A stretch of DNA of 64,000 nucleotides. Origin: an uncultured bacterium (lineage in GTDB: Bacteria; Omnitrophota; Omnitrophia; Omnitrophales; Aquincolibacteriaceae). Both the position numbers and the translations under genes were made by a program. Shown one piece after another: positions 6,532-64,000 of the stretch (positions are counted from its first letter, which is position 1; each line of letters opens with the position of its first letter). Below the pieces are notes generated by a model. The model had not been told where the DNA came from, ran no database searches, and saw only the letters and a program-made list of their open reading frames with translations. Location: positions 31,187 through 95,186 of the forward strand of contig CAZLTL010000006.1 of NCBI GenBank assembly GCA_964562525.1. The letters are read 5' to 3'.

Positions 6532-7002
6532 ATGATCCGCACTTTAAAGTTCCTTCTTATTTTTTTGTTGCTCGCCGTTTCTGCGTGGGTTGTTTTTATC
6601 AGCGCGTTACCCGTCCTTTTTATCCGGCAAATGGAGCATAAATACGCGATCATTTTGAAAGGGGAGCGCGATCTTGTGTTATTCACACCCCGGTTTAAAG
6701 TCAAAAATGCTTCTTTTGTTTGGAATGACAAAGTGGAATTGCTTCAGGGAAACTTTGACATTCAATTGGATCCGTTGGCGTGGATTCGTGACCGAGTTTG
6801 GGCCATGTCGCTTCAGGGGGACGGCTCCAAACTCCGCTTTTTAGGGGAGTGGCTAAAAAAAACGGGAGTCAGCGAAATTCAGACGACAAAGCTGCGGTTG
6901 GCGCTTGATTTTTACGACGGGGATATTCGTGAAATCCATCAGGTTGAAGTGGTCGCGCCGGATTATCAATTTCAAATTCAAAGCCGTGTCGTACCCCAAT
7001 GA
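6532..7002 (+). CDS. Hypothetical N-terminally membrane-anchored protein (156 aa), translationally coupled to murE
   Basis: TM helix (LKFLLIFLLLAVSAWVVFISALPVLF) followed by a beta-rich domain. Its stop overlaps the murE start (ATGA at 6999-7002). It occupies the slot where ftsL/ftsI usually lie. Confidence 0.55.
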   Translation: MIRTLKFLLIFLLLAVSAWVVFISALPVLFIRQMEHKYAIILKGERDLVLFTPRFKVKNASFVWNDKVELLQGNFDIQLDPLAWIRDRVWAMSLQGDGSKLRFLGEWLKKTGVSEIQTTKLRLALDFYDGDIREIHQVEVVAPDYQFQIQSRVVPQ

Positions 7003-9771: not shown

Positions 9772-10857
9772 ATGCTTTATTTTTTGCATCAATTTGCATC
9801 AGAATCGATTGTTTTTAACCTTTTTCGGTACATTACTTTCCGCGCTGCCGCTGCCGCGGTTTGCGCTTTTCTTTTCAGTTTGCTTTGGGGACCGCGCTTA
9901 ATTCAGGATTTAAAAGCCTTGAAAGCGATTGCTAATAACCAGCGCGAACACGCTGAGTCCATTCATCACCTTTATGCTGATAAGAAAAATATTCCGACCA
10001 TGGGTGGCGTGCTGATTGTGCTGAGTGTTCTGTTTTCTACTTTGTTTTGGGCGAATTTAACCAACCTTTATGTTTGGCTTTTGATCGCGGTTTTGATCGG
10101 ATTCGGCTTTGTAGGGTTTCTCGATGATTGGCTGAAACTGCGGTATCAGAATTCTAAGGGGTTGCATGGTCGGCTTAAACTTCTCGGACAAATTTTGACG
10201 GGGCTTTTAATTGCTTGGGTTTTGTATCACTCCGATACTTTTGGACGCATGCTTTACTTTCCATTTTTAAAGCAGCCGATTTTGAATCTTGGAATTTTGT
10301 TTATTCCTTTCGTGATTTTTGTTTTGGTCGGAACTTCCAACGCGCTCAATTTGACGGATGGTTTGGATGGCTTAGCGATTGGATGCGCGTTTTTTACGGC
10401 ATCGACATTCGCGGTATTAGCTTATGTGACAGGCCGCCAAGATTTTACGGCTTATCTTTCAATACCTTATTTACCGGGCGCGGGTGAAATCACCGTTTTT
10501 TGCGCCGCTTTGGCCGGAGCTTGCGCGGGGTTTCTTTGGTATAACGCTTATCCTTGTCAAATTATGATGGGCGATACTGGCTCCCTTTCGCTGGGCGGCG
10601 TCATCGGTACGGTGGCTGTCCTTTTGAAAAAAGAATTTGTACTTGTGATTGTCGGCGGTATTTTTGTTTGGGAAGCCCTTTCCGTGATTATTCAGGTGAC
10701 GAGCTTTAAGCTGACGGGGAAGCGAGTTTTTTTAATGTCGCCGTTTCATCATCATTTGCAGAAATTGGGATGGCCTGAGAATAAAATTGTAATTCGCTTC
10801 TGGATTATTGCTTTTATGCTCGCCATCGTCGGTCTCGCTACGCTGAAAGTCCGATAA
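9772..10857 (+). CDS. mraY: Phospho-N-acetylmuramoyl-pentapeptide transferase
   Basis: Polytopic membrane protein with NLTDGLDGLA and MGDTGSLSLGG motifs and a C-terminal HHHLQ. Confidence 0.96.
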   Translation: MLYFLHQFASESIVFNLFRYITFRAAAAAVCAFLFSLLWGPRLIQDLKALKAIANNQREHAESIHHLYADKKNIPTMGGVLIVLSVLFSTLFWANLTNLYVWLLIAVLIGFGFVGFLDDWLKLRYQNSKGLHGRLKLLGQILTGLLIAWVLYHSDTFGRMLYFPFLKQPILNLGILFIPFVIFVLVGTSNALNLTDGLDGLAIGCAFFTASTFAVLAYVTGRQDFTAYLSIPYLPGAGEITVFCAALAGACAGFLWYNAYPCQIMMGDTGSLSLGGVIGTVAVLLKKEFVLVIVGGIFVWEALSVIIQVTSFKLTGKRVFLMSPFHHHLQKLGWPENKIVIRFWIIAFMLAIVGLATLKVR

Positions 10858-10861
10858 AAAA

Positions 10862-10977
10862 ATCAGAAATCAGAAATCAAAAATCAGAAATCAAAGCCAT
10901 AACTTAGAATTCAAAGATGTTCGAGCATCTAAATGTATTTAATCTATGGTTCTGAGCTCTGATTTCTAAGCTCTAAA
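10862..10977. repeat. Intergenic heptanucleotide tandem-repeat element with an inverted distal arm (mraY-murD spacer)
   Basis: Five tandem heptamers, ATCAGAA ATCAGAA ATCAAAA ATCAGAA ATCAAAG, at 10862-10896. The distal arm TTCTGAGCTCTGAT TTCTAAGCTCTAAA at 10950-10977 has a reverse complement that again reads ...ATCAGAG CTCAGAA. The imperfect dyad is centred near 10920. Confidence 0.8.
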
Positions 10978-12434: not shown

Positions 12435-14013
12435 ATGAATAGAGTCCCGAGAATTTACAAGCTAATCGCAGTGTTTACCGCACTTTGCTTAGAGTGCACG
12501 TCCATCTCCATTCCCACTTTGCATGCTCAAACAGTTCCGCAAAATATTCTTTCTGTAAAAAAACTGAATCCTGAGATTCTTAAATTACCGGAAAAGTTTG
12601 GTGAGGTGGTGGAAAGCCATGCGGGAAATGGAAATGTGATTGTGGTGCAGGACGCGCACGCAATTCCGGATGCGCAGAAGAATATCGCGAATGTGATCAA
12701 GTATATGCAGCAAGAGTATGGCGTGGGAACCGTTGCACTTGAAGGTGCGAGCGGCGATCTCGATCCGCAAATCTTCCGCAGTTTTCCTGATAAGAAGCTG
12801 CTGCGAGAAGTGATGAACGGGTACATGAATTCGGGTGAAATCGCGGGCGGTACGGCTGCTGCGATTTTCGACGAAACCACAACGAAGTATGTCGGGGTAG
12901 AAGATTGGGATGTTTATGAAGAAGGTTTGGGGCTTTATCTCTCCGCGATGGATAAGACCGCAGCCATTGAAGCTCAGCTATCTGCTTTGCGTGAAAAGTT
13001 AAACAAGGAAAAAGAAGCGATTTATCCGCGGGCGTTACTTGAAGTTGATCACGAGATCGAAAAGTTTTATGAAAATGCCGCGCAGCTAACGGAACTGATT
13101 AAAGTGTTGGGAGCGATTCAAGCCCCTAAGGCAGGCAGTGAACTTGAAGCGGTGTGGAAGGAAGTTTCGAAAGCCCACAGTCCGGCGACCGGAGGCGAGA
13201 GAAAGGACATAGAGGTTCGTGCTTTAGCAGCGAAGGTCGAAAAGGTGTTAAAGAGCCCAGGGGCGGTGAAAGCGTTTAACAGCCGTAAACAAGAATGGAT
13301 GACAGGTCAGATCAGCGCAGAAGCCTTTGCACTCAATTTGAAAGAGTTTGCTGATCAAAGCGGACTTAATCTTGAGATGTCCTCCGATTTGCTCGGAATG
13401 GTACGAGACCAGCAAACGTTAAAGGGGCTTGAAGGAACCAAGCTGTTTCGGGACTTAGAGATTTATATCCGTGAAGTGAAGATGCAGTTAACGCAAAGAC
13501 AACAGACGGATGTTTCGGTTAGCGGTGTGAATGCTGAGATGTCAGCGATTCGGGCGTTGGATGAACGGACGAATTCACTGCGTGTATTAACGAAGCTATC
13601 AAAACTTGAGTTGTCCCGCCAAGAGTGGACGAATTTATCGGGGAATTTGGTGTTTGAGGCCTTTGCGGCATTGGGATTAAAACAAGAAGACTTTCTGTTC
13701 CACCTCGCTTTTTATCTGAATGCTGAAGAACGCGACCAAATCTTTTTCGATAATCTCAAAGCTTCGGTCACCGGCCTCCGGCCTTCCGTGATTGTGGCCG
13801 GTGGTTTTCACGCGGAAGGAATCACGAGCCGCCTCAAAGAGGCGGGAATGGGCTATGCGCTTGTGATGCCGAAGATCAATCACATTCCTGAAAATAACTC
13901 GTACAAAGCGCAGATGCGCGGGGAAGTGTCGTGGAAAGATTATTTTGAAGTTGAGAACGGTCGCATCCATCTTTACAAGGCGTTTGTGCGCGCAACGCGC
14001 GACAAGCTTGTCG
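12435..14013 (+). other. ORF A head module: signal peptide plus split TraB/TIKI/ChaN-like domain
   Basis: The signal-like N-terminus is [11 protein letters not shown]...[41 protein letters not shown] and [12 protein letters not shown] resemble the GTxH...VE and GxGHxxG motifs of TraB/GumN/TIKI-fold proteins. The same motifs occur in ORFs B and C. Confidence 0.5.
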
Positions 14014-17000
14014 CAGACCGGAGACCGGAGGTCGGAGGGCAGAGTGACTCAGAGCTCCGGACCCCGGACTTAGGCCTATTAAAAGCTTGGCGCGATCAAA
14101 TCATCCGTGATTTATCGGATATGGGGAAGGTGAATCGCGCGGCCTGGTACACACGGTTTATGGATGAAGTGGTGGACGAAAGCCTGAAGCACACCGATGC
14201 CGACAAGCTGATGATCAAAGTCGACAATTTTATCCGCGGTTTGCGCGGACTTGAGAAGAACAATCAAATTGATCAGGCAAATATAGCGGATTTACTCAAG
14301 GCAAGTATGGCGTCACCTGCTGTTACTTCCCCAGCTGTTGTCGGTACCCCGCTGTCGTTTCCGGTTAATCCCGCAAGTGAAGTTACCATGCAAGAAGCAT
14401 GGGCTAGCGTCCGGGAGTCTCTTCCTGTCGCCATAATTAATGCTTCTCCAGCAGATAATACGCAGTTGCAAGAGCAGGTGACGACGATTCAGGCAAATGA
14501 GCCAATTAATTACAGTGGACTCTCAGCTGAGTTTGATGCAGCAGCTATTAAGCAAACGGCCTTACTTAGCAATTTGGTTCGGCGGGTCTCAAGTATTACC
14601 GATGCAGATTTGGAGTATGAGTGGAATGAAATGGGACGACTTCTTCGTTTGGTGAACGGGATGAAAGGAGAGCCCGACCCGCGAGATCCGGAAGCAATTT
14701 TTGGTTCTGAAGAGCGCAATTTTAAACTACCGGTTGCAATGCGTTCCAAAATTGTGCGCAGTTTGAGTGAGCGAATTCAGTTTAAGTTGGCATGGACGCA
14801 TGCTGTAAATACATTTTTGAACGATGCTGAAGGTGTATCCAAGTTGGCAAGCCGGGCTGCCCCTGCATTAAGAGAGAGTAATGATGAGGGCGCGGCTGTT
14901 GAATTTGAAGTTTTGTCTCCTGGACAATTAACGGACGAAGAATTCTACCGTACTCTTTTGGGCGACAACGGAACCGTGAGCAATGGGTTGATTGGTTCGG
15001 GAAATTTAGTAGCAGCTTTTCGACTTGTTACTCAGAAAATGGCCGTCATGATCAAGGCCGGACCCGAAGGAGTTCCCGGTGGATCAAGAGAGCTAATCAA
15101 GCGCGTTCATGCCTTAGATGGAGTCGCTAAAATGATCCGCGATGAAATTACAACAATGCAGCGCTCCGAAGCGCGGGTTAATGAAAATGCGCCGACAGAT
15201 CAGGCGGCACGGGAGGAAGCGCTTGCAACTGATGAGAAGCTGAAAAGGCTTGATGTCACGACTTTCTTTAAAGAGATCCTTAAATCGGAATGGAAGTGGT
15301 TGTTGGTTGGTTTTGTTTTATTAATTTTGAGCACCATGCTCTACGACTTAGTCGCTGTTACTACGGTCGCGCAATTTTTTTTAAAATCTCTGGGGGTGGG
15401 TGTTGGTTTCTCTTGGGGTGCGATTTTGCTGTTCAATCCTTTGACAGTGCTTACCCATGAATTAGGGCATTTTCTAACCTACCGATTAGTTGGCGGTAAA
15501 TCCGATAACACGTTTGGTTTTAATAGGCACTCCTACTTTTTCAATGCAGATGACATATATAAACTCCCCATATGGAAAGTTCGGATTGTGGATATGGGTG
15601 GGCTTGTGATCAACACAGCTATTTTTGCCACAATTGGTCTTATTTCGTATCTTACTTTGGGCGCGACCCCTGTTCTTATTGCTCTCGCTGGACTTCAACT
15701 TGCTGAATTTATAATGGCTTCCGGTGATTATGAGAAATTCTTCAATGCCAGAGGGTATCAGGCTTTGAGCCTTGATATTGCAAAGTTTCAGGAAGAGATC
15801 AAAAATTACAAACCTGAATTTCATGCAGATGGCACGCGAATATCGGCTGAAGCTGATCGCCCTTTGGATGAGCAAACTCAACGCGAAGCACGGGTGGATA
15901 AAACAGAAGAGGCTTTGAGAAGTGGGGCGTTAACAGTTGAAGGGAAAACGGCGGTTTTTGGCCCTCAGGCGAATAAAGATTTTGCGATAGGAGTAAGCCC
16001 GGAAGTTTCATTTGTGGATTTAGATAAAGCCGATTTTGTAACGAAAGCAGAAACATTTCTCTTTCAATCGCTTTTCTTTGCGGCGGCTTTTTTAAAAATC
16101 CCTGTTGGGAAAGAGCAGAAATTAAATACTTACAAGGAAGTATTTGAAGCGCTTCAAAATGCCAAAGCCGCGGTCAAAAATGCCGGTGGCTTAAGCTTGT
16201 ATGCTGCCCAAGAAAAATTAAAAGAAGCCCAAGCTGAAAAAGATGAGTTTGTGGCTGAAGCTCAAAAGAGAGGTTTTGCCGAGTTTTTGCTTCCGGGTGG
16301 AATTCTAAGCCGCCGCATGGAGATTTTTGTTCCCAATGAAAATCAGCGCGAACGGCTTTTAAAGTATTTAACCTTAACTTTTGTAGGGCAAAGTAAGGAA
16401 TCGCTGCTCTCAGACATTCTGAAAGTGCAGCAAAAATTAGGAGTCACTTTTGATCCGGCGGTTCTTGAGCAGCTTTTAGCCGAGTTTGAATCAAAGCGCA
16501 GCTTCATGTTTCCCGGGGGAGTTTTTGCCGGGAAAATGGATGCAGAGATTCAAGATATTTTTGGTCAATTTATTCAGGTGAAAGTTTTAAGTCAAACCCA
16601 AAGTGTTTCAAGCCCCTCAGTTGGAAATATTCAGCTCAATCTTTCAGGTGCGTTGGTTATGGGGGCAGGCCAATCTGAAGTCGCTGTGGATTGGGATCAA
16701 GTTTTACAGTCAGGAGAATTGGCTCCGGCATGGTCTGAAGCTTTTACTGCACAGCTCAAGAAGGCGCTCATCTTTAAAGATGGGAAACTGCGTGTGTTTA
16801 ATCTCGGGACAGGCGACCCCACCCCGTTTAGCCAGAATCAAGATTACACACATATGGCATTTATTGTGAATGGGAAAATGATTGTTACCGATCCGTCCAT
16901 TCGCAGTATTCGTAATCTTGAGCGTTTGGGATTTTTGGAAAAAGTTGAGGCAATTCATCTGACCCATGTTCACTTTGACCATGTAGGTGGCATTTTAGAT

Positions 17001-23033: not shown

Positions 23034-23073
23034 TCTTTTCCTTATCAGCACCACAAGTCCCGGGTTGGTTTTG

Positions 23074-23108
23074 GTCGTTGGTCTCTAGTCGTTAGTCTTT
23101 AGTCTGTG
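23074..23108. repeat. Intergenic heptamer tandem array (GTCGTTG GTCTCTA GTCGTTA GTCTTTA GTCTGTG) between ORF A and ftsW
   Basis: Five 7-nt units. The reverse-complement units (TAACGAC, CAACGAC) are the same unit seen in frame at 42670 and 46658. Confidence 0.75.
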
Positions 23109-41846: not shown

Positions 41847-44800
41847 ATGAGATCAGTTAAGCACAAAAGTAAACGGTGGGTAGCGCTTGGAGCGTGTATT
41901 TGCTTTGTTGCCACGCTCTTTCCCGACGCTCATGCCGCGCTGCCTTCGATTGACATGGCGGTTAAGGCCGAAACTCCTCGTGTTCTTAATATTGACATTC
42001 CCACTGAATTAGCCACAGTCGATGAGTGGTATCAGGCTCCTTCAAAATCCAAGCCGAAACTGATTGTGCATATTCAGGATGCTCACGCGAATTATGAAGC
42101 TCAAACCAAGATTCGTGATGTGATTAAGTATCTCAATACGAATTACGGTTTTAAAACAATTCTCGTTGAAGGCGCGGCAAGTGAGCTGGACCCGAATATT
42201 CTTAAGCTTTTTCCGGATCAAGACCGCAATTTAAAACTTGTCGACGAGCTTGCCAAAATCGGTGAGGTCACCGGCGCGGAAATGTTTTTGGTTGAAAACA
42301 GTGATGCCGCAAAAGGGATGGGGATTGAGAAGCCGGAGCTTTATCGCAAGAATTTTGACGCGCTTCAAAAAGTTTATTCCGAAGATGAGTTTGTCAGCGG
42401 ATTTTTCGAAGCTTATGAAAAAAAATTAGGACAAATTTCATCGCGAAGTTTTGGCCCGCGCATGATCCAAGCTTTGGCCGAATGGCGTAAATTTGAGAGC
42501 GGGCATCGTGATTTTTTACCATTTGTATCTAAGCTGGCGGAGCTTTCCAAGAAAGTTTTAGAGATGGATCTCGGTGTTCTTTACTCGCAGATTGAGTGGC
42601 CGCAATTAACACGTTTGTTGGTTCTGCAGCGTGTTGAAAAAGAATTAGAGCAGACTCATGACAGACGACCAACGACTGACGTCGAAGAAGGTGCTCAGCG
42701 TTCAGCCCTTAGTGTCAAACAACAAGCGGAACTGGAAAAACAGAACATCATCGATTTGATGAAAGTTGCTCAGTCGCCGGAAGGATTGATTCGAGGACTG
42801 GAGAACTTTAATGAGAAATCAGCTAATCTCAACCGCATTGGATCTTCCGAAGTTCGCCAGGCAAGTGCGCCGCGCGCTTTGATGGAGGCGTTGGTGGAAG
42901 AGGGTGCTAAGTTCGGTTTGAACATTCGCGATTATCCTGCTTTTGCCAAATACGCTGGCTATTTGATTCTTCGCGGCGAAATTGTGCCCGCAGAGTTATT
43001 TGAAGAAATTAAAAAGCTATTTGACCTCATTCTTGAATCTCTCGTGAAAGAAGCACCTTCTGCAGCAATGGAGTCAACGGATGATTTAGCCGCTCGCAAA
43101 CGTCTGCTTTTACTGCATCGTGATGAAATGCTGGCGCGCAAACTCCTTAAGCTTGAATTAACCCACGACGAGTGGCTGGCGGTGCTGAATAGACAAGATC
43201 GCTTTTATCCTGATGATTTGAATCGCCGTATGCTTGAACAACTGGGACAAAATACCCGAGTTAAAGAAACCGGCGGGGAAGAAGCCTCGCAAATGAAAAA
43301 ACTCAATGAAGCCTTTCGTGCCGCATTCACTTTCTATTCCGCTGCGGTGAATCGTGACACTTTCTTCTTTCAGCGTACGCAAGAAGTTTTAGCGCAAACC
43401 GACAAAGCCATTTTGATTACCGGAGGTTTTCACGCGGAGGGAATGAAGTATTTCTTTAGAAAATATGACATCAATTACGGAACTCTCACTCCACGCATTA
43501 CCCAAGAGTTCACCAACGAACAATACCGTAAGGTGATGATGACCGGCGTCGAGAAAAACAAAGCGGAGATTACGCAGCAGCTACAGGAAGGATCTTCAGC
43601 GGTGGAGGAGAGCGACACTCCAAAGTCTAAAAAAGCTGCGAAAGAAAACTATCTTGGTGCGGAAAGTCTTATTGATCCTCTAAGTGATGGTTTAGTTGGT
43701 GGGACAAGATCTGAAGTGCGGAGAAATATAGTTCAAATGTTAGCGGTTTCATTGGGCTTACCGAAAATTCAACAAGAAACCTCTTTAGCTGCGCCCGCGC
43801 AGGTGGCCGTTTCACGTCAGCCGAGATCGATCGCAGTACGATTCGAAAGTGTTTCTGCTCCTCAGGGCTTTTTATCTGTCCTAGAGGGGCAGCGAGCTTT
43901 AATTGGTGCGGGTATTGGGATTTTTGGTCTGGTTGCAGCGTATTTAGCCGCGTTATCCTCTCCAATTTTGTTGATTCTGGCGATTCCTTTTACTGCCAGT
44001 GGAATGATTTATGGATTCGATCAATATTTTAAAGCGCAATATTTGATTTCGAATGCCACCAAAGCCGGAAGTGTTGAATTAACCGATAGGCTTGCTACTT
44101 CTAGTCAAACAGAGGTTCCAGTTGTTGTGCAGCGAACGGAGGTTGCGCAAGTGGATGCGGAGCCGCTCACTTTCACTTCTGTTTTAACAGAGTTGGAAGT
44201 TGAAAGAGCGAAGTCTGAGCCAGATGCAGCGCGTTTGGCTGATTTGGTTGCCCAGTTGGTTGATTTAGCCGGTGACATTGAAGAGGCTAAACAAGCTCAG
44301 AATGTACTACGAGATTTAAGAGTTAAATACAAGAATCAGTTGAATCCGTCGCAATCAACCAACCTGATCATGAAAGTAGCACAACTCGCTGTGAAGTTGA
44401 ATCAATTCCAACAAGCTCAAAAATTATATGAGAGGGAGGAGATTGTTGTAACAGCGAAAGCTCCGCGCGAAGCTATTTTTGCAGCTCTTTCTCCGGAGGA
44501 CAGAGGGATTTTAAAGAGGATGGCGTTTGATGATTTAGAGAATCAAATTATTGACGCAAAAGACTTGTCCGCATCGCAAGCTGTGGCTATTTTGATTACT
44601 TACGGATTTATTTCCGATAAGGACCGCAATGCCGCCAAAAACTTAGCGATATTGGCTTCACTGGCTGTCACCAAGATTGCGCCTCAAAGGGTTTCGGAAT
44701 TGGCGGAAATGGTACGAGCCTTTTTCCCGGAAATGGTCTCATCGGACTTGGGTTATTTAGGCCGAATTATTGATGCGAATGGCATCGGAAACAAGTTAGA

Positions 44801-45272
44801 TACGATGCGGATGCAAGCTGTTTTAAATCCAAAAATGGAATTTGAAGTTGTTGTGTTTGGAGAGCGCGGCCCGATGGTTGAAGATAAGGCTCTTTCTAAT
44901 TTGCGTATTCGTTATGCCAAAGATTTTAATTCAGCTGCTAGTTTAGTTACCAGCAAAGGCGCTATGGAGAAATTTAAAATAGGCACCAAAGTATTGATGG
45001 TTGTGCCGGAAGGTAAAGATTTTAGAAAACTAGCTTCTCAGCTCAACTTGCAAATTGTTCAGGAAGAAAATAACCATGAGAAAAATTTAGAGGCGAGTGT
45101 TGCTATGGTTGTTGGAGCTCAGAATCTTGCCAGAAATGTTGAGGCATCCGTTGATGAGGACGGTATTGAAAAAGCAGGCAAGAACTGGCGCATTACAAAG
45201 CCCTCTTTATCAAGGCTAAAGGATATTTGGCAAAGGTTTCAAGCTGCTTTGCAGGTTATGCAATCAGCGTAA
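41847..45272 (+). CDS. Modular protein B (1,141 aa): head module, RSEVR, TM hairpin, tail module (cargo-less family member)
   Basis: Signal peptide (...FPDAHA/ALP). The head aligns closely with ORF C (HIQDAHANYEAQTKIRDVIKYLNTNYGFKTILVEGA; EWRKFESGHRDFLPFV; LLVLQRVEKEL; AILITGGFHAEGM). The tail ends ...ALQVMQSA*. Confidence 0.85.
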   Translation: MRSVKHKSKRWVALGACICFVATLFPDAHAALPSIDMAVKAETPRVLNIDIPTELATVDEWYQAPSKSKPKLIVHIQDAHANYEAQTKIRDVIKYLNTNYGFKTILVEGAASELDPNILKLFPDQDRNLKLVDELAKIGEVTGAEMFLVENSDAAKGMGIEKPELYRKNFDALQKVYSEDEFVSGFFEAYEKKLGQISSRSFGPRMIQALAEWRKFESGHRDFLPFVSKLAELSKKVLEMDLGVLYSQIEWPQLTRLLVLQRVEKELEQTHDRRPTTDVEEGAQRSALSVKQQAELEKQNIIDLMKVAQSPEGLIRGLENFNEKSANLNRIGSSEVRQASAPRALMEALVEEGAKFGLNIRDYPAFAKYAGYLILRGEIVPAELFEEIKKLFDLILESLVKEAPSAAMESTDDLAARKRLLLLHRDEMLARKLLKLELTHDEWLAVLNRQDRFYPDDLNRRMLEQLGQNTRVKETGGEEASQMKKLNEAFRAAFTFYSAAVNRDTFFFQRTQEVLAQTDKAILITGGFHAEGMKYFFRKYDINYGTLTPRITQEFTNEQYRKVMMTGVEKNKAEITQQLQEGSSAVEESDTPKSKKAAKENYLGAESLIDPLSDGLVGGTRSEVRRNIVQMLAVSLGLPKIQQETSLAAPAQVAVSRQPRSIAVRFESVSAPQGFLSVLEGQRALIGAGIGIFGLVAAYLAALSSPILLILAIPFTASGMIYGFDQYFKAQYLISNATKAGSVELTDRLATSSQTEVPVVVQRTEVAQVDAEPLTFTSVLTELEVERAKSEPDAARLADLVAQLVDLAGDIEEAKQAQNVLRDLRVKYKNQLNPSQSTNLIMKVAQLAVKLNQFQQAQKLYEREEIVVTAKAPREAIFAALSPEDRGILKRMAFDDLENQIIDAKDLSASQAVAILITYGFISDKDRNAAKNLAILASLAVTKIAPQRVSELAEMVRAFFPEMVSSDLGYLGRIIDANGIGNKLDTMRMQAVLNPKMEFEVVVFGERGPMVEDKALSNLRIRYAKDFNSAASLVTSKGAMEKFKIGTKVLMVVPEGKDFRKLASQLNLQIVQEENNHEKNLEASVAMVVGAQNLARNVEASVDEDGIEKAGKNWRITKPSLSRLKDIWQRFQAALQVMQSA
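42663..42718 (+). repeat. In-frame heptamer triplet AGACGAC CAACGAC TGACGTC plus an imperfect inverted arm
   Basis: Directly follows the codons for LLVLQRVEKEL(EQTH). Encodes DRRPTTDVEEGAQRSALSV. Confidence 0.65.
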
Positions 45273-45437: not shown

Positions 45438-48400
45438 ATGCGTAACTCGTCCTGGCTTAAATTCACCGCTGGTGTATTTACGTTTCTTTTCGTTTTAAAC
45501 GACATTGGGCAAGCTGCGCCTGCGCTTGACTTTGCGGCGTCGTTGCGTTCAGAAATTCCGCGCGTATCCCATATTGAAATTCCACCTGAAATGGCAACTC
45601 TGGAAGATTGGTATGAATCGCCGAACGTAGGAGATACGCGGCTTATGCTTCACATTCAAGATGCTCACGCTCAGCCTGAAGCGCAAGCACGAATCCGTGA
45701 TCTCATCCACTATTTAAATAAACAGTATGGTTTTAAAACAGTTTTTGTTGAAGGTGCAGCGGAACAACTTGATGTGAAGTGGCTGCATCCATTTAAAAAT
45801 TCTGAACAAAACAAAAAGTGGATTGAAGAAAAAACATCTTCAGGCGAAATGTCGGGCGTTGATTTGGCATTGCTTGATGGCGTTGCCGGGCTCAAGGCTT
45901 TGCCAATTGAAACAATTGAAGGCTATCGGGATGGTTATCAAAAACTGCACGCGGTTTATACCGCTGAACCAGAGGTGAACGAGTTTATTAATTTTTTTGA
46001 CTCCAAGCTCGATTCAGCGGCATCCAAGATTTTGAATGAAAAAACAAGACGTATTCTTTCTGAGTGGAAAAAGTTTGAGTCTGGACATCGTGATTTTCTG
46101 CCTTTTGTTGAAAAATTAGCCGCGCTTGCGAAAGAGGATCTCAAGCTTGATTTAGACGCTCTCTACTCCCAAATCGAATGGCCACAACTGAGTCGGCTAC
46201 TTGTTCTTCAGCGAGTTGAGAAAGAACTCGCTGAAGCGGTGCCGACAGGGCAAAGGTCAAAAGTCAAAGGTCAAAGCCATAACTCAAAGCCGGTTAGCTG
46301 GAGAGAACAAGCGCTCGATGAAAAGGAAATAGTTCTCAATTTGCTAAAAGACGAACAAGCTAGCTCGGGATTGATCCATGGTCTCGAGCGGTTTGACGAG
46401 AAACATCTCAACTTAAACCGTATTACTGTCGGCGATGGAAGGCAATTTTCGAGCCCGCGCGCTTTAGTTGAGCAGTTAGTTGAAGAAACTCGCAAATTTG
46501 AGATTGATTTGCGAGATTATCTCGCTTTTTTGAAATACGCCGGATATTTGATTTTACGCGGCGAACTTCAGCCTTCTTTGCTTTTCAAGGAAATAGAGCG
46601 CCTTTTTGAGAAATTCCTCGAGAAGACTAACGACCCTTCGGCTGAGCTCAGGGCAAGCCAACGACTAACGACTAACGCCGGAGAAGATGTTCAGCGTGAA
46701 GCGCAGAGCGTTAAGCTGATCGAGATCTACCGCGATTCATTTCTTTTAAAAAAGTTGCTTAATCTTGAGCTTTCTCGCGAGGAGTGGCGAAAAGCGCTTG
46801 CGAAGCGGGAGGAGCTTGAACCGCAAAAGATTTTAGGGAGACTAAAGAATCTTGGAGCCGCGGTCCACGGTCCACGAGCCACGGCAAACGAAAAAAAGAT
46901 CACGAATCTTGAACCTCGAACTACGGAAAATCAGGACGTGGAGCGCACGTTTGAGAATGCCTTTGATTTTTATGATGCCGCGTTAGCGCGTGAAGATATT
47001 TTCTTTGAGAAAATTAGTTCGTCTTTGGCTCAAAACGATAAAGCGATTTTGATAACGGGCGGTTTTCATAGCGAAGGAATGAATGCGTTTTTTCGTGAAA
47101 AAGAAATTTCTTACGGAACCTTAACGCCGCGTATTACCAATCTTGCGCCCACTTCTTTGTACCGCAGCGCGATGATGCAAGCGACAAATTTGTCTAAAGT
47201 TTCGTCTCAGCCCACCCCAGCCTTGGCACAGCCGCTCGAGACTATTGCCGCCATGACTGCTTTGAGCGTGGTTGCAGTTCGTTCTGAAAGCCGACTTCAG
47301 ACTGAAGCTGCCGATTTTGTTCAATGGGTTGAGGATTTGAAATTAGTTCGGGATCCAAATAATGCCGCTGAAATCGAAACTGTTTTGCTTCGCCATCGAG
47401 ATCTTTTTAAGCATAGACCCGATGAATTTCCTGAAGAGTCGGTTAGCTTTCGCGGAAGAAATTTGCAGAAGATTCCTTCTCGTTTGATTCATCAGCTTGA
47501 TCTTACTTGGCTTAATGGCCGAAATTCTGATGCCAAACCGATTACAAGAAATGACTTGTTTCAGTTGGTATTTGACCGGCCTTTGGATGAAAACGAAGCT
47601 AAGGGGTTTGCCGGGTATGACAACATACAAAGTTTGCGTGATTTGTTCTATTTTTTGATTACTAAAGAGCATGGCAGAAGTTTGCAGCTTTTTGCAGAGC
47701 AGTATTTTGCTTTGGACTCCGGACAACGAGAGCTTTTTTTGGAGCAAGCATTTGATATTCATCAAATTACTCAGTATTTGATGGGGCAGATGGCTCGTAA
47801 CGATGATTATGAAGTTTCTGATGAGATTTTAACGGCTTACGCGAAAGCATGGCCAATTGTCATTCAATTTGGAGAGGCAGAGCTTCAATCGGGCGGGATA
47901 TTAAAGCGGTTAAAGACCGTTCCGGATTTGCCGGTTGACATCGATTTGCGCTCAAATCAGGATTCGGGGCAAGAAGTAATTTTAGAAGATTGGGAGCGAG
48001 CCCTTTTGCTGCTTGAGAACTATGTTGAGATCGGAGATGAGTCGATTGATACTCAAATCGGAGTGGTTTCATTGGGATTAAGGAGTTTGGCGGGGGATCA
48101 GGCAACGGAGGTTCGCTGGTCTCGTGCATCATCACTGGAACGGGCTGTGGCAGTTCGTCTGGAAGGAACTTTGCCTCTATCTCGCGAGGAAGCGAATCGA
48201 TATTTGCGATGGCTTGAAGTTGCGGATAGCGATTTGAATGGATTGGATCAAGCCAAACTTTTTGAGCCGAATCGTCTGGTCTTGATCGGCAAAATTGCCA
48301 GTTTGCGTGAACAGATAGTTGCTCGTCAGCTGCAGTCTGAATCTCGAGAGGATGAGCGTGATAGGGGAATGGCTCGATCAGAATTACGTACCGTTGAAAT

Positions 48401-51400
48401 TGACGGAGTCACTGCGAACTGGGAAATTGTGGAAAACCTGCTGCTGGGAGACCCCGGAAAATTTGATGCGGCATTCGAGTTTGAAAAAGACGAAGAGGTT
48501 TACTTAAAAATAAAACCCGCCAACTTCAAACAGCAGCAAGATTTGACTGAAGCGGGTTTTGAGTCTGAAAATCCGAATTGGGTTAAGAGTTTAGTGGATG
48601 ATGCGCAGCTGCTTACTTATGTGGTTGGAGCTCAGCCCAAGATCCGTGCTTATCTTGTCCAAGATAAATCAAGAAATACGACCGGCTTAAATCAAATCGA
48701 GTTTGATGCGGGCGGAGTTGTTCGGCCGAAGGGTGATAAGGGTATTTCTGCAAGCCGGTTGAATGAAGCTGGCCAACTAATTACTTTTATACCGCAGGTT
48801 TTTGTTTTAACGAAAGCCGGAGTTTTGCCCGGCAGATTTAAAACTTTATCAGAAAAAGATGAAATAGAACGTGTTGCGGCTGAAAGATTGGCTGCTGAGC
48901 AAGAAAATCTGCGGGCAGTTCAGCGTTCAACTGCCGCATTAAAAGAAATTCAAGACCGCATGAGTGCGCTCGCGGCATCGATGGAAAGTGAGTCTGCGTG
49001 GTCTTTTGTTCCTCAAAGCATTCCTAATATTGATCGTGAGGAAATTGCGGATAGCGATGACCTTAAGTTGATTCGAGCGCGCAGTCAGATGATTTCTGAA
49101 GATTTGAATTCTTTACGAATAGCTTGGCAGCAGGCGACGGATACACAAAAGAAATGGGACAGGCTGCTCCGAGATTGGGCTTCTGCTTACGATAAAATCA
49201 ACAAAGAAAGCAGTAAGCTTGCCGGCTTAAATTTTCAATCGATTGCGGTGAATCTGCAAAGCCGCCGTGAGGCATTGAATAAAATAGAAACGTATCTTGA
49301 AAGTTTGGTCAGAATAATGGGCTCGTTTCAAGCCAAAAAAGCTGAATTTGAAAGCAAATTACAGGCTGAGAAAGAAAGAAAAAGAGCGGAAATAGAGCGA
49401 GTTCGGTTCGAATCTTCTCAGAGGCGTGGTGCTTTTTGGGATAGGGTTAACCGTTGGGGGCCGTTTGGTTTGATCGCTTTTGCTGCAATGGCTCTGATTT
49501 GGTTTTTGGGGATACGCGAAAAAACTGTCGCACCTGAAGTTCGTTTGTCGCAACCGGAAATGATGGATTATTCTTTACAGGGCTTGCCCCAAGGGATTTT
49601 GGACGCAATGCAGCGAAATCGGCAGAATTTGAAATGGACCCCGCAAGAGGTTCTTTTACAGCTGCAGACTCTTATATCAAAGCATGTCACAGATGAGCTG
49701 GATTTGGGGCCAATGACAATTGCTGGTTTTCCAAAAGATTTCGATCAGCTTGAAGTTGTAAACCCGCCCAAGGATGCTTACTCGATTGTTATTCCGGGAG
49801 TGCAATTTTACCAAGCCGAGTTCATTCCGAAGCTGAATAACAAACCGATTAAGCAATTTCAGCAAATGGTTGTTTCAGTAGAAACAGTTCGCGGTGCGAA
49901 AGTATTTTATGCACAAGATACGATTGTGCAGGTGGGCGAATGGCTGCTTTCTTTAGCGGGCGATTCGATTTCTTCAGCGGAGAGTTTGCGGATGGGTGCC
50001 TACATTGCCCAGGAGTTTGCCGGCACCACCTTTGGTTTAGAGCAAATTGATCATTGGCTTGCGAAAAACGGTGCCTCGCAGGCTCCGAGTCCATTGCTGC
50101 GAGGGCAAGTCGATTTGCCGGTAACGTATTTTATCGCTAAAGAACTTGAGGGATTGCTGTCATCAGACTCTCCGTTTGTTGAGCCGTTTCGGGAGCTGGA
50201 GAAGCAATTAAACGGAGGGCAGGGGAATGTTTCCGCTTCCGGTAAGATTTTGACAGCACTCATAATCAGCGTTTACGCAGACTCTAAGCTCTATCTTGAA
50301 AAAATTAGCGTGGATGAGCAAAAGAAAATATTTGATGCATTATCAAGAGAGCTTGTCCCGCTGGTAAATCAGAATGGCGTTGGCGTTGAGGTTGCGGCGC
50401 TTGAGCGCCTGCGCGGTTCGATCACTTTTCGAATGGCGTCGCAAACTCAAATGCTTTCGGCAGGTTTAAGAAATGGTTCAATTACCTCCGAACAAGCAGT
50501 CTTGCTGTGGAATCAGCTGATGGGGTTGGAGGAGGAAAACATTTTAGCGATTGTTGGATATTTAAATCAGAAAAATATTCCTCAGGCCGCCAAGCTTTCT
50601 GGGTTTGTCAAAAGTTACTTTGAGAATGCCCGTGCTCTTAGCCAAGACCCTGATGGGGTAAGGTATATTCGCGAGCAAGTTGAATTAAGAATGAGAATGG
50701 GAACAGAGCTACTGCACAAATCTGAGCAGACAAAACCGGCCGGTCGTTCTGAAATGCGGGAGTTTGGTGAGCTGGTTGAACGTGTTATTTCGCACACTCA
50801 TTCGGATGGTGCGAACAAAGATCAACGGAAAAACCTTGTTGATTTTTTTAGGATGATGTCGCGAGGATATCAGCAAGAGTTTCTTGCGGAGCTTCAGCAT
50901 CAAGCGCAAGGACAGCCTGCAAGGAAAAAAATAAAAATTGTTTTAAGTCATGAAAATCCTGACCCCGACGCGATCATTAGCGTGATCGGCGAAGCATACG
51001 CTCAGTGGGCGGCATTAAGCGATCAAGAAAAAGATAAAACCTTGGTGATGCCTTTGCTTTACGGCGAGGTTCCGGCAAACACCTTGTATTTGATTCAAAT
51101 GCTGGAACGTCTGCTTAAGAATGATACGGTTCCGGATGAACAGGAATATGGCGGAATGCTCATGCTTCGTGGTCCACCTGCAATTTCTGGAAAGACGGCT
51201 CCCGGAACGATTCTAGATTTATTACTTATAATTAGCACTAACGCTTCTCAGCAGGACTTATTTCAGCCGTCCGGAGCGATAGAGCTAACCTTGATCGATT
51301 TTAACCCTTCTATTGCTCCAAAAGATTTGGATCCTCTTATGCCTGCGATTGTCCGAACCCTGGATCATCACATCCAAAATGTTGAAAAAGCACCGAATAT

Positions 51401-61162: not shown

Positions 61163-61907
61163 ACTGTTGACGCTCAACACTTGGCAGGAGCGCGGTCCCT
61201 GGCGCGAACGTTGGGAATTAATTTTTGCCGGACTCAAATTTTATTTGCCTGATATTGTCGCTTTTCAGGAAGTCTTTAACATGGATTGGGCGGATGAAAT
61301 TCAGAAACGTAGCGGATTTCCTTATTTATCCAAGAGTGGACAAAACTCCGGGCTCATTTTTCTATCCAAGCATCCCATATTAAAATCTGAGTGTCTGACT
61401 TATAAAACAAAATCACCGAATGAAGACTACAACCGCTACGCGCATTTCGTGCTGTTCCAAGTCGGGCGTCAAAGGATTGCAGTGTTCAACACCCACCTTT
61501 CATGGCTTTTGCCCGAAGATGATATTCGATTAGGGCAAACGCGCGAATTACTTGGGTTTATGCGTCAAAAATCACGGCGTTGGCTTGGTTTAGGGGGCAG
61601 TTACCCTTCCTTTCTCACGGGAGATTTGAATTCTGACCCGAATAAGCCTTCCGTGGAAGCCGTCAAAAAGATAATGACAGACACTTATGCGGAACTTAAC
61701 CCAGGGCAGCCGGGTATCACTTGGGATTATAAGAATCCCTTTGCTGAACGCGCGCGCGATCGCATGCCTGAGCGCAGGCTGGATTACATTTTTACCCGCG
61801 GCATGAAAGGGAAGACCAAAAGCTCGGAAATCGTCTTTAATCAGCCGGACGCGAATGGCACTTTTCCGTCCGATCATTTGGGCGTGATGACGGAGATACA
61901 GTTATGA
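61155..61907 (+). CDS. Endonuclease/exonuclease/phosphatase (EEP) family protein
   Basis: LLTLNTW...DIVAFQEV at the N-terminus, GDLNSDP, and C-terminal PSDHLGV. Confidence 0.82.
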   Translation: MLRLLTLNTWQERGPWRERWELIFAGLKFYLPDIVAFQEVFNMDWADEIQKRSGFPYLSKSGQNSGLIFLSKHPILKSECLTYKTKSPNEDYNRYAHFVLFQVGRQRIAVFNTHLSWLLPEDDIRLGQTRELLGFMRQKSRRWLGLGGSYPSFLTGDLNSDPNKPSVEAVKKIMTDTYAELNPGQPGITWDYKNPFAERARDRMPERRLDYIFTRGMKGKTKSSEIVFNQPDANGTFPSDHLGVMTEIQL

Positions 61908-63028
61908 CAGACCGGAGACCGGAGGCCGTAAGATCGGGCGGCGCTAAAGAGTATCAGCGGATTAAAAAAACGCTTTCGCTAGTTCATTTATTTTTAACGC
62001 CCGCGTTATTGGCTTTGTGGATTTTTACTCCGCTCTCCATCATGGTACAAGAGTTCGCAGTGTCAGCTTCGGATATTGCTTTCTTGCAAGTTGCTTTGTT
62101 TTTTCTTCTTTTTTCTTTGTTCTTTTTTATTATTGATTTGCCTTTGTCGTTTTATTCTGGGTTTGTAATTGAGCACCGCTTTCAGGTTTCTAATTTAACT
62201 TTCTTAGGTTGGCTGCGCGAAAATGGGAAACGCTCCTTACTTTCATTTGTTTTCTCGCTGGTGTTAATTCAGGGATTGTATTTTTTGATTGAGCGCCGTA
62301 CTTCAGATTGGTGGTTATGGGCTTGGGCGGCTTATGCCGGCGTGAGTTTTATTATGGGCAAGCTTTTTCCGGTATTTATCGTGCCGCTTTTTTATAAATA
62401 TCAGCCTTTGCCCGAAGGTGAGTTAAAAGACAGAATCTTGGCGTTGCTTAAACGGTTTGGGTTGCCGGCTGCGAATCTTTTTTCAATTAATTTAAGCAAG
62501 ACAACTAAAAAAGCGAATGCGGCTTTTATGGGGTTAGGGAAAACGAAGCGTGTTGTGTTGAGCGATACTTTACTTGAGAATTTTACTCCCGCCGAAATCG
62601 AGCAAGTAGTCGCGCATGAGCTTGGACATTTTAAACATCAGGACATCTGGAAACAGCTTGGGTTGGGACTTTCTATTTCTTTGATTTGTTTTTATCTTGG
62701 GTACCAGGGTGTTGAAAATATGCTTTCGGTTGCCGGGCTTGAGACAGCGGCGGATGTGGCGGGGTTACCGCTTTTGATGCTGATTTTTTTGGGTGTGTCT
62801 TATGTCAGTATGCCAATTACGAATGGCTTTTCGCGGAGCTGTGAATTCGCGGCGGATCGGTTTGCCTTGGATGCTTGTCGCGATCGCGATACGTTTATTT
62901 CAATGATGAATAAGCTGGGAAAACTCAATTTGTCGGACCCCGATCCTGCGCCATGGTATGAGTTTATTTTTTACAGTCATCCTTCGAATAAGAAAAGAAT
63001 CGCTGCTGCGCAGAGTTGGAAATCATGA
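61904..63028 (+). CDS. M48-family (Ste24/HtpX-like) membrane zinc metallopeptidase
   Basis: Multiple TM helices, HELGHFKH, and a downstream EFAADRFA. The N-terminus (MTDRRPEAVRSG) is encoded by a heptamer repeat. Confidence 0.85.
   Translation: MTDRRPEAVRSGGAKEYQRIKKTLSLVHLFLTPALLALWIFTPLSIMVQEFAVSASDIAFLQVALFFLLFSLFFFIIDLPLSFYSGFVIEHRFQVSNLTFLGWLRENGKRSLLSFVFSLVLIQGLYFLIERRTSDWWLWAWAAYAGVSFIMGKLFPVFIVPLFYKYQPLPEGELKDRILALLKRFGLPAANLFSINLSKTTKKANAAFMGLGKTKRVVLSDTLLENFTPAEIEQVVAHELGHFKHQDIWKQLGLGLSISLICFYLGYQGVENMLSVAGLETAADVAGLPLLMLIFLGVSYVSMPITNGFSRSCEFAADRFALDACRDRDTFISMMNKLGKLNLSDPDPAPWYEFIFYSHPSNKKRIAAAQSWKS
61909..61929 (+). repeat. In-frame heptamer triplet AGACCGG AGACCGG AGGCCGT at the 5' end of the M48 peptidase gene
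   Basis: CAGACCGGAGACCGGAGG (61908-61925) is identical over 18 nt to 14014-14031 inside ORF A. Confidence 0.8.
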
Positions 63029-64000
63029 AATTAAAACGAAGTAGATGCAATAATCTTTTGAGTGCATGGACAGTCTTGGGTCTATTGTCTTTGGTCTGTT
63101 GTCCCGCGCTTTGCGCTGCGGAACAAAGTTTTGCCGAGAAACGTGAGCAAACCCAATATGAACGCCGTCTCCAGATGCTGGCTCAGCGTTATCAGCGTGC
63201 GCCTGCCGGAACCGTGGACTTTCCGCAAGAGCTGATGGCTGTTGATTACATCAATGAAGGTTATAAGCTTTTTGAAAAAAATCAATATGACTTAGCGCTC
63301 AAAGCCGCACAAGAAGCTCTGAAATATGACAAAAAAAGCCCCGTTGCGCATGAGTTGAGCGGAGATGTTTATTATTTGCGGCAAGATCTCACCAAAGCGA
63401 ATGAGCATTACCGCGAAGCGTTTAAATTGGAACCTGTTTCCCGGCTTAAAGATAAGCTTGAAAAATTAGGCAGGGAAACAAATGTTGAACAAAGTTTTGA
63501 AACGGTGGAAGAAGAGCATTTTCTAATTAAATATAACGGTAACCAAAGCGATTATGAGGGCTTTGAGCTCAAAACGATGCTGCGTGAAACCTACTTAGCC
63601 ATCGCCAAAGAAATTGCGCATTATTTGAATCATAAAACGACCGTCCTTTTTTATGACGCGGGAAACTTTCATTCTGTTGCGAATTTATCGCATTGGATTG
63701 GCGGGCTTTACGACGGAAAAGTCAGGCTCCCGGTTCATCCGCGGGGATTCGGGGAAAAGCAATTGCGCGCGGTGGCGCGGCACGAATTAACCCATGTGTT
63801 TTTGGATGACTTGGGTAAAAAGAAAACTCCGGTTTGGCTGCATGAAGGATTCGCCGTGTATCAGCAGAATAAAGTCGAGCCTTTGCCTGCGTCGTCGCTT
63901 TTTGTTTTACGGGATGAGAAAAACCTCATTCCTCTGCATAGTCTTTTCAATTCAGCGACATTTGAAAGCCACAAAAATGATGAGGCCTGGATGAGTTTGT
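63025..64000 (+). CDS. Secreted TPR plus MA-clan zinc-peptidase-like protein (partial, runs off the right edge)
   Basis: The ATG at 63025 overlaps the M48 stop (ATGA). The frame stays open to base 64000, so the ORF is absent from the track. Signal peptide MKLKRSRCNNLLSAWTVLGLLSLVCCPALCAAEQ, TPR-like segment, then ARHELTHVF...WLHEGFAVY (HExxH plus E). Confidence 0.7.
   Translation, partial: MKLKRSRCNNLLSAWTVLGLLSLVCCPALCAAEQSFAEKREQTQYERRLQMLAQRYQRAPAGTVDFPQELMAVDYINEGYKLFEKNQYDLALKAAQEALKYDKKSPVAHELSGDVYYLRQDLTKANEHYREAFKLEPVSRLKDKLEKLGRETNVEQSFETVEEEHFLIKYNGNQSDYEGFELKTMLRETYLAIAKEIAHYLNHKTTVLFYDAGNFHSVANLSHWIGGLYDGKVRLPVHPRGFGEKQLRAVARHELTHVFLDDLGKKKTPVWLHEGFAVYQQNKVEPLPASSLFVLRDEKNLIPLHSLFNSATFESHKNDEAWMSL

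Follow-up and report, generated by a model that had tools for sequence, protein, structure and literature searches.

Rickettsia palindromic elements (RPEs) are dispersed palindromic repeats that lie between genes and also in frame within unrelated genes, whose protein products remain intact; every family has a single reading frame and contributes a peptide of its own (PMC10969869). Heptanucleotide repeats are the commonest class of long simple sequence repeats (SSRs) in many bacteria and are mostly intergenic (PMC4692102, PMC4679880), with GGGAATC in Xanthomonas and GGGGAYT in Nostoc (PMC4692102), and TAACTGA in Beggiatoaceae (PMC4679880). The genome of Geobacter metallireducens contains elements of four GGACCGG units (Gmet_H4##, 49 copies) and class-3 sites of five MTYCTGA units that occur in pairs (Gmet_I30x); many of its heptanucleotide elements are paired on opposite strands, and they are treated as a side note and read as regulatory RNA or binding sites (PMC2700814). 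Here we analyze a 64,000-nt stretch of an uncultured Omnitrophota genome (GCA_964562525.1, contig CAZLTL010000006.1, positions 31,187 to 95,186; hereafter, the window), in which three paralogous genes, ORFs A, B, and C, harbor heptamer triplets. These triplets are probably copies or remnants of short, dispersed heptanucleotide-palindrome elements, tolerated in frame as the RPEs are.

Results

Heptamer Triplets in Three Paralogous Heads

The N-terminal ~600 residues of three open reading frames (ORFs) are paralogous heads that contain the motifs HIQDAH, VEGA, and GGFH(A/S)EG: ORF A (12435-23033, 3532 aa; head 12435 to ~14234), ORF B (41847-45272, 1141 aa; head 41847 to ~43676), and ORF C (45438-59639, plus strand, 4733 aa; head 45438..47267). 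A first-pass annotation of the sequence had proposed that the same loop of all three heads is encoded by a different heptamer triplet in each paralog. All of the triplets it quoted are present, and they represent three different unit families: AGACGAC CAACGAC TGACGTC in B (42663-42683, encoding DRRPTTD), GGTCAAA AGTCAAA GGTCAAA in C (46255-46275, encoding GQRSKVKGQS), and AGTCCGG CGACCGG AGGCGAG in A (13179..13199, plus strand, encoding SPATGGE). The peptide LLVLQRVEKEL, directly followed by the triplet in C, is found in both B and C, for which the equivalence of the loop holds; it cannot be claimed for A, since the identity of this head is only 20-26% and the segment falls at different places in two alignments. 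Conserved sequence had been said to resume about 25 aa later, and QAxxEK does resume after 22-23 aa, whereas the segments quoted in support, GLIRGLENFNEK and GLIHGLERFDEK, lie ~46 aa after the motif. As a repeat, the C triplet stands by itself within a 4.3-copy array, but the B triplet (9/14 self-matches, non-significant alone) and the A triplet (8/14, chance level alone) do not, and both have family matches in the window.

Period-7 Arrays in the Window and in Related Loci

Arrays were defined by at least 12 of 14 self-matches at lag 7, and 100 dinucleotide shuffles served as the null. There are 8 period-7 arrays in the window, compared with 0.35 ± 0.68 in the shuffles (maximum 3), and 0-2 arrays, or chance level, for each of the periods 4-6 and 8-12; period 7 is thus specifically enriched. 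Tandem Repeats Finder (TRF), which was also used for tandem arrays in the window, places three period-7 arrays in C and five more elsewhere. A first protein search yielded 3 homologs. A genome scan, with one genome per species, was far richer and recovered 78 related loci (labeled Lnnn below), the closest of which is ~60% identical to C; most are titled Candidatus Omnitrophota or Omnitrophica, and ~20 records have another phylum name or none (uncultured bacterium, uncultured Planctomycetia, PVC group). Two syntenic relatives, L083 and L084, were also informative. The product of ORF B is identical to a protein of an NCBI assembly. A metagenome scan for strain variants of C returned one locus at 57% identity and no close variant.

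The Omnitrophota loci, 1.24 Mb in all, hold 53 period-7 arrays, compared with 2-22 for other periods, and almost all of these belong to the closer relatives. Heptamer palindromes are frequent in the clade formed by L001-L054 and close to absent from L055-L080. Within the loci of the array-bearing clade, the heads contain 30 arrays in 79 kb (3.8 per 10 kb), sequence outside ORFs 9 arrays in 46 kb (1.9 per 10 kb), and other ORFs 19 arrays in 561 kb (0.34 per 10 kb), while the rest of the giant ORFs has 0 arrays in 222 kb (0 per 10 kb). The head counts are not independent, as the heads are related, yet at least six distinct alignment positions are involved. The arrays are short (2.3-4.4 units) and imperfect.

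Hypervariable Insertion Points

We aligned 44 heads and scored the DNA below each low-occupancy block for period 7. The survey bears out the proposal that the heptamers mark hypervariable insertion points in an otherwise conserved domain: the inserts coincide with period-7 DNA, and identity drops locally where they occur. At hot spot 2, which follows LLVLQ..E.EL, 35 of the 44 heads are without an insert and nine have 8-31 extra residues (window B and C, L003, L005, L006, L007, L008, L009, and L010). The period-7 self-match is 10-14/14 in eight of these nine inserts (12-14 in six) and 4/14 in the 8-aa insert of L010. Hot spot 1, which follows GAELYLLE, is empty in the window proteins and is occupied in another clade by inserts of 17-71 aa, mostly with period 7. 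Both of the additional sites of C described below (sites 2 and 3) also fall in insert blocks of this alignment.

The positions of the inserts persist across orthologs while their sequence turns over. Between window B and L081, nucleotide identity is ~0.85 at baseline, 0.35 at 42657-42717, and recovers by ~42810; between L009 and L010, it falls from ~0.93 to 0.58 at the insert. In B-type orthologs, the inserts are unrelated in sequence and ~17 to 34 aa long, and site 2 does not vary. The hot-spot-2 insert of the C orthologs measures 23, 28, 31, ~9, and 0 aa, the ortholog without an insert being that of L004. Comparison of L083 B with window B reveals a 7-aa (21-nt) indel inside the array.

Elements Within ORFs C, B, and A

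The hot-spot-2 insert of C (46239..46307, plus strand; 69 nt, 23 aa, VPTGQRSKVKGQSHNSKPVSWRE) contains the array GGGCAAA GGTCAAA AGTCAAA GGTCAAA (46247-46277), followed by GCCATAACT..CAAAG; TRF delimits this array as 46247-46276 (period 7, 4.3 copies, score 46). The array and the 3' edge of an intergenic array at 10891 have TCAAAGCCATAACT in common exactly (C copy at 46271), and blastn matches the insert to the 10891 element at 24/28 nt. The insert is a half element without a complementary right arm and forms no hairpin (z = 0.0; own-arm complementarity 10/21), because TTTGACC, the complement of GGTCAAA, must bring an in-frame TGA when at least three units are present.

Site 2 of C (46620..46716, plus strand) is a near full-length copy of a family that we modeled with nhmmer (family N). 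Its components are a left end (GAGAAGACTAACGAC), a nested segment of 24 nt around a GAGCTC core (CCTTCGGCTGAGCTCAGGGCAAGC, 46635-46658), an array (CAACGACTAACGACTAACGCC, 46660-46677), a loop (GGAGAAGAT), and the degenerate right arm GTTCAGC GTGAAGC GCAGAGC GTTAAGC. The family-N model matches 46658-46720 with E = 7.8e-17, though this copy was a seed of the model, and site 2 is ~80% identical to the element at another loop, hot spot 2, of the L083 C ortholog. Site 3 (46861..46884, plus strand) contains CGGTCCA x3.4, encodes HGPRAT in a low-confidence loop, and aligns with a position in L003 occupied by CGTGGAG x3, the reverse orientation of a similar unit. The two further arrays of C had been described as lying where B is shorter and free of repeats, and B is indeed 11 and 9 aa shorter at these places and not periodic.

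The hot-spot-2 insert of B (42657..42722, plus strand; 66 nt, 22 aa, HDRRPTTDVEEGAQRSALSVKQ) is a degenerate family-N copy, with GACAGAC GACCAAC GACTGAC as its left arm and GCTCAGC GTTCAGC as its right arm. The B triplet can be aligned with clean (GACCAAC)3-4 arrays that the relative L083 carries at the same site. A search of the window with AACGACTAACGACTAACG returned 5 matches where 0.02 are expected, with locations at 46660, at 42664 (the B triplet, 3 mismatches), and at 23076-23107 on the minus strand. No palindrome is detected at this site (z about 0; own-arm match 10/21). In A, the triplet is a decayed member of the AGACCGG family, which is better preserved in a second array of the same head, AGACCGG AGACCGG AGGTCGG AGG (14013..14038, plus strand; ADRRPEVGG). 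A search with GACCGGAGACCGGAGG at ≤3 mismatches gave 5 matches where 0.19 are expected: 13180 (the A triplet, 2 mismatches), 14016, 14023, 61910, and 61917, of which 14016 and 61910 are exact. The second array also has an 18-nt exact match to 61906-61923, within the gene for an M48 peptidase.

Dispersal of the Families and Their Reading Frame

Each of these families recurs in the window at unlinked places. The AGACCGG family occurs in ORF A and the M48 peptidase gene, and reads DRRPE in both; the AACGACT/AGCGTTC family occurs in B, C, and one intergenic spacer; and the GGTCAAA/AAATCAG family occurs in C and another spacer. In the B and C orthologs of L083, hot spot 2 is occupied by (GACCAAC/GACTAAC)n, GCCGARAAA, and (AGCGKTC)n, then GTTAAGCAGCA. 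In the nhmmer search, family N turns up in the heads of four genomes, at hot spot 2 and at site 2, as well as in a spacer of L083; copies that were not seeds of the model are those of L084 C (E = 7.7e-9), L084 B, L004 site 2, and the L083 spacer. The presence of family N at two head loops in four genomes and in a spacer indicates dispersal, beyond simple inheritance at a single site. At every coding site the family is read in one frame, giving ..TNDQRLTTNA..VQRS..SVK.

Smaller segments are nested within these arrays. The 24-nt segment (CCTTCGGCT..GCTCAGGGC) is present in window C site 2 (46635-46658) and in L084 B (6863-6881), at different places, and the region containing it in the window (46632-46662) folds no better than shuffles (z = -0.11). 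A 21-nt GC segment in L083 B (~6826-6846) adds PPAGRAG and pairs CCUGCC with GGCAGG in the predicted fold.

B-type and C-type heads of the same genome can have nearly the same hot-spot-2 insert (L083, 6807/10589; L084, 6801/11671), whereas B and C of the window genome have inserts from different families. L003 (4125-4208) and L007 (8854-8937) are ~90% identical at the insert, including the upstream flank, in heads that are ~44% identical overall. The near-equal inserts in paralogs of one genome point to intragenomic gene conversion or repeated insertion.

Palindrome Anatomy

In the relatives, the inserts are built from two arrays, the right being the reverse complement of the left, that enclose a loop of ~10-20 nt; the loops of intergenic copies are ~30-70 nt long, and the total length of the elements inside genes is 66-93 nt. 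Reverse-complement arms are present in L015, L026 (GGATGGA... / ...GCCATCC), L032 (GCGCAAC / CGTTGAG), L029 (CGGGACT / AGTCCCG), L003, and L005. RNAalifold finds no consensus fold for the hot-spot-1 inserts, because these do not align, and consensus folding was replaced by a comparison of arms: complementarity between the two arms of one element is 13-20/21, compared with 11.5 ± 2 when the arms come from different elements. In RNA folding, intergenic copies have z-scores of -8.4, -4.0, -3.0, and -4.3, and copies within ORFs range from -4.5 to 0. At the LLVLQRVEKEL loop, the B and C copies of the window have lost the ability to fold and are decayed or half elements. A search of the elements against Rfam gave no match above threshold.

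The two arrays of an inverted pair are almost always ordered with the purine-rich one first, 5'-R...Y-3', an order that is identical on either strand. This order is observed in the window (10857-10975), L001, L015, L026, L032, L029, L025, L005, and L051, with an exception in L039 (5599/5648), and it is also that of the Geobacter GGGACCG and TCAGAAT pairs (PMC2700814 supplements).

Avoidance of Stop Codons

Inside ORFs, the only copies found have a length that is a multiple of three and units that are free of stops in the frame read. Units that are stop-free in all three frames make up 26 of the 30 head arrays, compared with 70% of random window heptamers, and 23 of the 30 are stop-free on both strands, compared with 52%. 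Where units do contain a stop, the arrays end before the third unit, which would bring the stop in frame (46660-46680). In (GACYAAC)n arrays, C occupies the Y position exactly in the unit whose YAA serves as a codon, and T occupies it in the others; the GCTTAAC of the intergenic family-N copy could not be read through. A frame-switch cassette, in which one arm gains a unit and the other loses one, was considered and is unsupported, as the common parts of orthologous inserts are in the same frame.

Copies Between Genes and in Other Genes

The intergenic palindromic element at 10857..10975, between mraY and murD, is comprised of (AAATCAG)x5, an inner stem (AGCCATAAC/TCTATGGTT), and the right arm CTGAGCT CTGATTT CTAAGCT (RNA fold z = -4.03). 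The same palindrome layout occurs between genes in L001 (14238/14340 and 22017/22106) and L083 (2944-3008). A second intergenic array of the window lies between ORF A and ftsW (23070..23107) and is the reverse complement of the AACGACT family, with the units GGTCGTT GGTCTCT AGTCGTT AGTCTTT AGTCTGT. Among other genes, the M48 peptidase has an N-terminal array (61906..61932, plus strand) with AGACCGG in a 9-aa insert (DRRPEAVRSGG region) that is missing from the L001 ortholog. The UvrD of L084 (4559-4615) contains a palindrome, (AGTACCG)n/(CGCGGTA)n, whose family is also represented in the L084 C head, and the corresponding UvrD loop (window about 41030-41110) is wholly different among relatives with ~95% identical flanks.

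Several further arrays were observed. In L007, (GGTCTCC)n, the reverse of AGACCGG, is located at 2121-2152, 7 nt upstream of the gcvPA start codon. A T-rich period-7 array (62094-62128) lies in a membrane helix of the window M48 peptidase. A period-7/14 array (63073-63103; GTCTTGG GTCTATT GTCTTTG GTCTGTT) encodes the hydrophobic core of a signal peptide, TVLGLLSLVCC, in a TPR protein that starts at 63025.

The Head Domain and Its Locus

The alpha/beta core of the ORF C head (HIQDAH...VEGA...GGFH) is interrupted by a long helical insertion that contains all three heptamer sites, and an invariant His-Glu-His is present in the head domain of C and its paralogs. The domain is predicted to fold like the Tiki/TraB/ChaN-type alpha/beta proteins. 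In an AlphaFold model of the C head (mean pLDDT 74, pTM 0.67), hot spot 2 corresponds to residues 266-287, between helices 249-265 and 288-305, site 2 to residues 398-413 (with low pLDDT at 403-412), and site 3 to residues 484-494; all three map to low-confidence inter-helix loops (pLDDT below 50 to about 60). The heads have no Pfam match above threshold, and the best match in a PDB sequence search with the head is non-significant (E 0.76). Two preprints on Omnitrophota giant proteins make no mention of heptamers, palindromes, or a TraB-like head.

The window is part of a bacterial chromosome that includes a division and cell wall (dcw) cluster (murE, murF, mraY, murD, ftsW, murG, murC, murB, ddl, ftsQ, and ftsA), the glycine-cleavage genes, and uvrD. 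ORF A interrupts the dcw cluster, between murD and ftsW, with heptamer arrays on either side of it, at 10857-10975 (one gene upstream) and 23070-23107. Proteins with this head span ~1,040 aa to several thousand aa; the giant proteins bear signal peptides, and the arrays are near the 5' end of their genes. In the relative GCA_023247055.1, the syntenic locus (L001 10001-13192) has one 1063-aa head protein in place of B and C, and the downstream genes are alike in both (TPR, acyltransferase, EEP, and M48). Given this single protein at their position, B and C look like a lineage-specific tandem duplication in which C may have been greatly extended.

Discussion

Origin of the Heptamer Triplets

We consider it probable that the triplets are copies or remnants of short heptanucleotide-palindrome elements that are dispersed in these genomes and tolerated in frame. 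In a complete element, a loop would separate a purine-rich left array from a right array of roughly reverse-complementary sequence. Such elements may spread by a copy mechanism, either transposition or non-allelic gene conversion, and could then change as units slip during replication and as hairpins stimulate rearrangement. Their presence in frame would be tolerated rather than required, and the encoded peptide would be a by-product, as for the Rickettsia RPEs.

Several observations weigh against this interpretation. At hot spot 2, neither the B copy nor the C copy of the window shows a palindrome. The units are very diverse, with 46 canonical units in ~60 arrays, which is unusual for a copy-and-paste family. 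Neither a transposase, nor a target-site duplication, nor a pair of empty and filled sites at close range was found, so that mobility is inferred only from the dispersed similar copies. The near-identical paralog inserts (L003/L007, and B and C of L083 and of L084) would also fit plain gene conversion. Finally, the concentration of arrays in the heads is not predicted by mere tolerance; candidate reasons for this preference are the re-targeting of existing copies, conversion between paralogs, and selection for loop change.

Selection for change is the basis of one alternative, in which the exposed head of giant secreted proteins would retain fast-mutating arrays as an adaptive mutational device: slippage by three units would alter the loop by 7 aa, slippage by one or two units would shift the frame and act as an off switch, and replacement of the array would supply new peptides. 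A unit that is not a multiple of three, the location near the 5' end of genes for giant proteins with signal peptides, the more than 10-fold enrichment in heads over other ORFs, the absence of arrays from 222 kb of downstream giant-ORF sequence, and the extreme local divergence between close relatives are all in keeping with such a device. The 21-nt indel between the B arrays of L083 and the window could be taken in the same way, but it proves to be the nested GC hairpin and not three heptamer units. The short, imperfect arrays lower slippage, all of the assemblies, which are consensus sequences, are seen in frame, and the frame of the common parts is conserved among orthologs; elements also occur in housekeeping proteins (UvrD and M48) and between genes. 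We therefore regard the device as unlikely. Similarly improbable is a selected nucleic-acid structure or protein-binding array in DNA or mRNA, with roles in regulation, processing, stability, or pausing, in which case selection would act on where the arrays lie in the head mRNA. The intergenic hairpins (z -3 to -8.4) and some of those within ORFs (z -3.7 to -4.5) would be expected of such a structure, as would the covariation of arms between elements and the persistence of positions while the sequence turns over; the near-identical Geobacter GGACCGG and MTYCTGA units in inverted pairs would suggest a common recognition principle. Most of the copies within ORFs, however, fold like shuffles (the window hot-spot-2 pair, C site 2, and the clean L083 arrays), the insert is missing from 35 of the 44 heads and from the C ortholog of L004, and there is no Rfam match.

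It is very improbable that no DNA element is involved and that the triplets reflect chance, or protein-level selection for low-complexity, disordered linkers. The chance-level scores of the B and A triplets taken alone (9/14 and 8/14) would allow this, and the inserts, with their high content of G, P, S, R, T, and Q, lie in low-confidence loops. Period 7 is nonetheless more than 20-fold above shuffles while periods 6, 9, and 12 are not, a 7-nt period of the DNA has no protein-level rationale, and identical units with their flanks occur in non-coding spacers. The least probable of these readings is the variable region of a diversity-generating retroelement (DGR) or another form of templated diversification. 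The first-pass annotation had raised a targeted diversification site, and local, extreme variability within a conserved domain is what a DGR would produce; this suggestion is contradicted by the window. Among its ORFs of at least 150 aa there is no reverse transcriptase and no transposase, and no template-like repeat was found in the 64 kb, the only additional similarities being 21-28-nt heptamer matches; the lack of both reverse transcriptase and template repeat means that this is not a DGR. The variation is also of another kind, with indels and replacement of arrays rather than adenine-specific substitution.

A broader and more speculative scenario has an outside chance of being correct: an unrecognized cross-phylum system may write or spread a limited 7-mer vocabulary (RGACCGG and TCAGAAW, each present in Geobacter as well as Omnitrophota) and may have been co-opted in Omnitrophota, in connection with an episymbiotic or predatory lifestyle, as a device for loop replacement or on-off switching in the exposed enzymatic head of giant surface proteins. 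The heptamer vocabulary common to Omnitrophota genomes amounts to ~6-8 cross-genome coincidences against ~1.5 expected before composition correction, a weak excess on which we do not rely.

Significance

For "selfish" palindromes that are accommodated in frame there is essentially one textbook example, the Rickettsia RPEs, and the elements described here would be an apparent second, independent case in a deeply divergent uncultured phylum. Their heptamer arms tie neutrality of the reading frame to multiples of three units, and the signature of selection against stops can be read unit by unit. The excess of heptanucleotide repeats in bacteria, long noted and unexplained, would here be linked to an effect on proteins in the form of hypervariable loops, collected by the conserved N-terminal head (Tiki/TraB-like by predicted fold) of Omnitrophota giant proteins. 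Complete Omnitrophota genomes and long-read population data would make it possible to test how the elements spread, whether turnover of the loops is adaptive, and what accounts for the seven-base unit.

Comparison With Known Systems

As in MITEs (miniature transposable elements with inverted repeats), inverted arrays form terminal arms here, and no transposase is present among the window ORFs of at least 150 aa. Elhai et al. in 2008 reportedly described small dispersed repeats (SDRs) in Nostoc as very small inserts nested in other repeats; the nested 24-nt and 21-nt segments in the heptamer arrays resemble these, with only two or three nested copies seen. Hairpin-forming inverted doublets that are dispersed in the genome are also a feature of REPINs, which are doublets of repetitive extragenic palindromic (REP) sequences (PMC3116915). 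In L084, a gene for a 217-aa Y1_Tnp protein (5103-5887), of the IS200/IS605 type or of the REP-associated tyrosine transposase (RAYT) type, lies just upstream of the B ortholog and has a nearly identical 40-nt GC-rich hairpin on each side (CCCCGCACTTCCGGGATGTACTTCCCGGAAGTGCGGGG), a classic REP/RAYT layout. A link of the heptamer elements to REPINs and RAYTs was rejected, as the REPs at this gene are 40-nt GC palindromes unrelated to the heptamer arrays; the window has no RAYT-type gene.

The elements resemble cyanobacterial short tandemly repeated repetitive (STRR) heptamers and other heptanucleotide SSRs in the over-representation of period 7, the presence of several families per genome, occasional inverted pairs, and lengths that vary among close relatives. 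They differ from these in location, since STRR sequences and SSRs are mostly intergenic and depleted from coding sequence (PMC4692102), while here the density in the coding sequence of the heads (3.8 per 10 kb) exceeds that outside ORFs (1.9).

The likeness to Geobacter extends to the units themselves. AGACCGG of the window is one base apart from GGACCGG, and AAATCAG/CTGATTT, likewise one base apart from MTYCTGA, can be compared with TCAGAAT/ATTCTGA; in both cases inverted pairs are 60-110 nt apart with the purine-rich arm first. The Geobacter H4 elements are marked, in our reading of the published table, by a fixed 7-6-7 spacing between their four units, and the Geobacter elements have not been linked to protein loops, hypervariability, or a particular protein family (PMC2700814). 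The resemblance to RPEs suggested by the first-pass annotation is well founded as an analogy. As for RPEs, palindromic repeats are found both in frame within ORFs and between genes, and each family has one peptide frame with its own peptide (family N at three sites; AGACCGG as DRRPE). RPEs, by contrast, are ~150 bp long with a family consensus and no heptamer periodicity, and the elements here are 66-93 nt long with tandem 7-mer arms and diverse units of fast turnover, occur in an Omnitrophota host, and are concentrated in one protein domain. Membership in RPE-1 to RPE-10 was rejected on the grounds of this length, the heptamer arms, the 46 units, and the Omnitrophota host, and the RPEs are an analogue only. 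The Geobacter metallireducens elements are the closest match in sequence, and the RPEs are the closest match in behavior.

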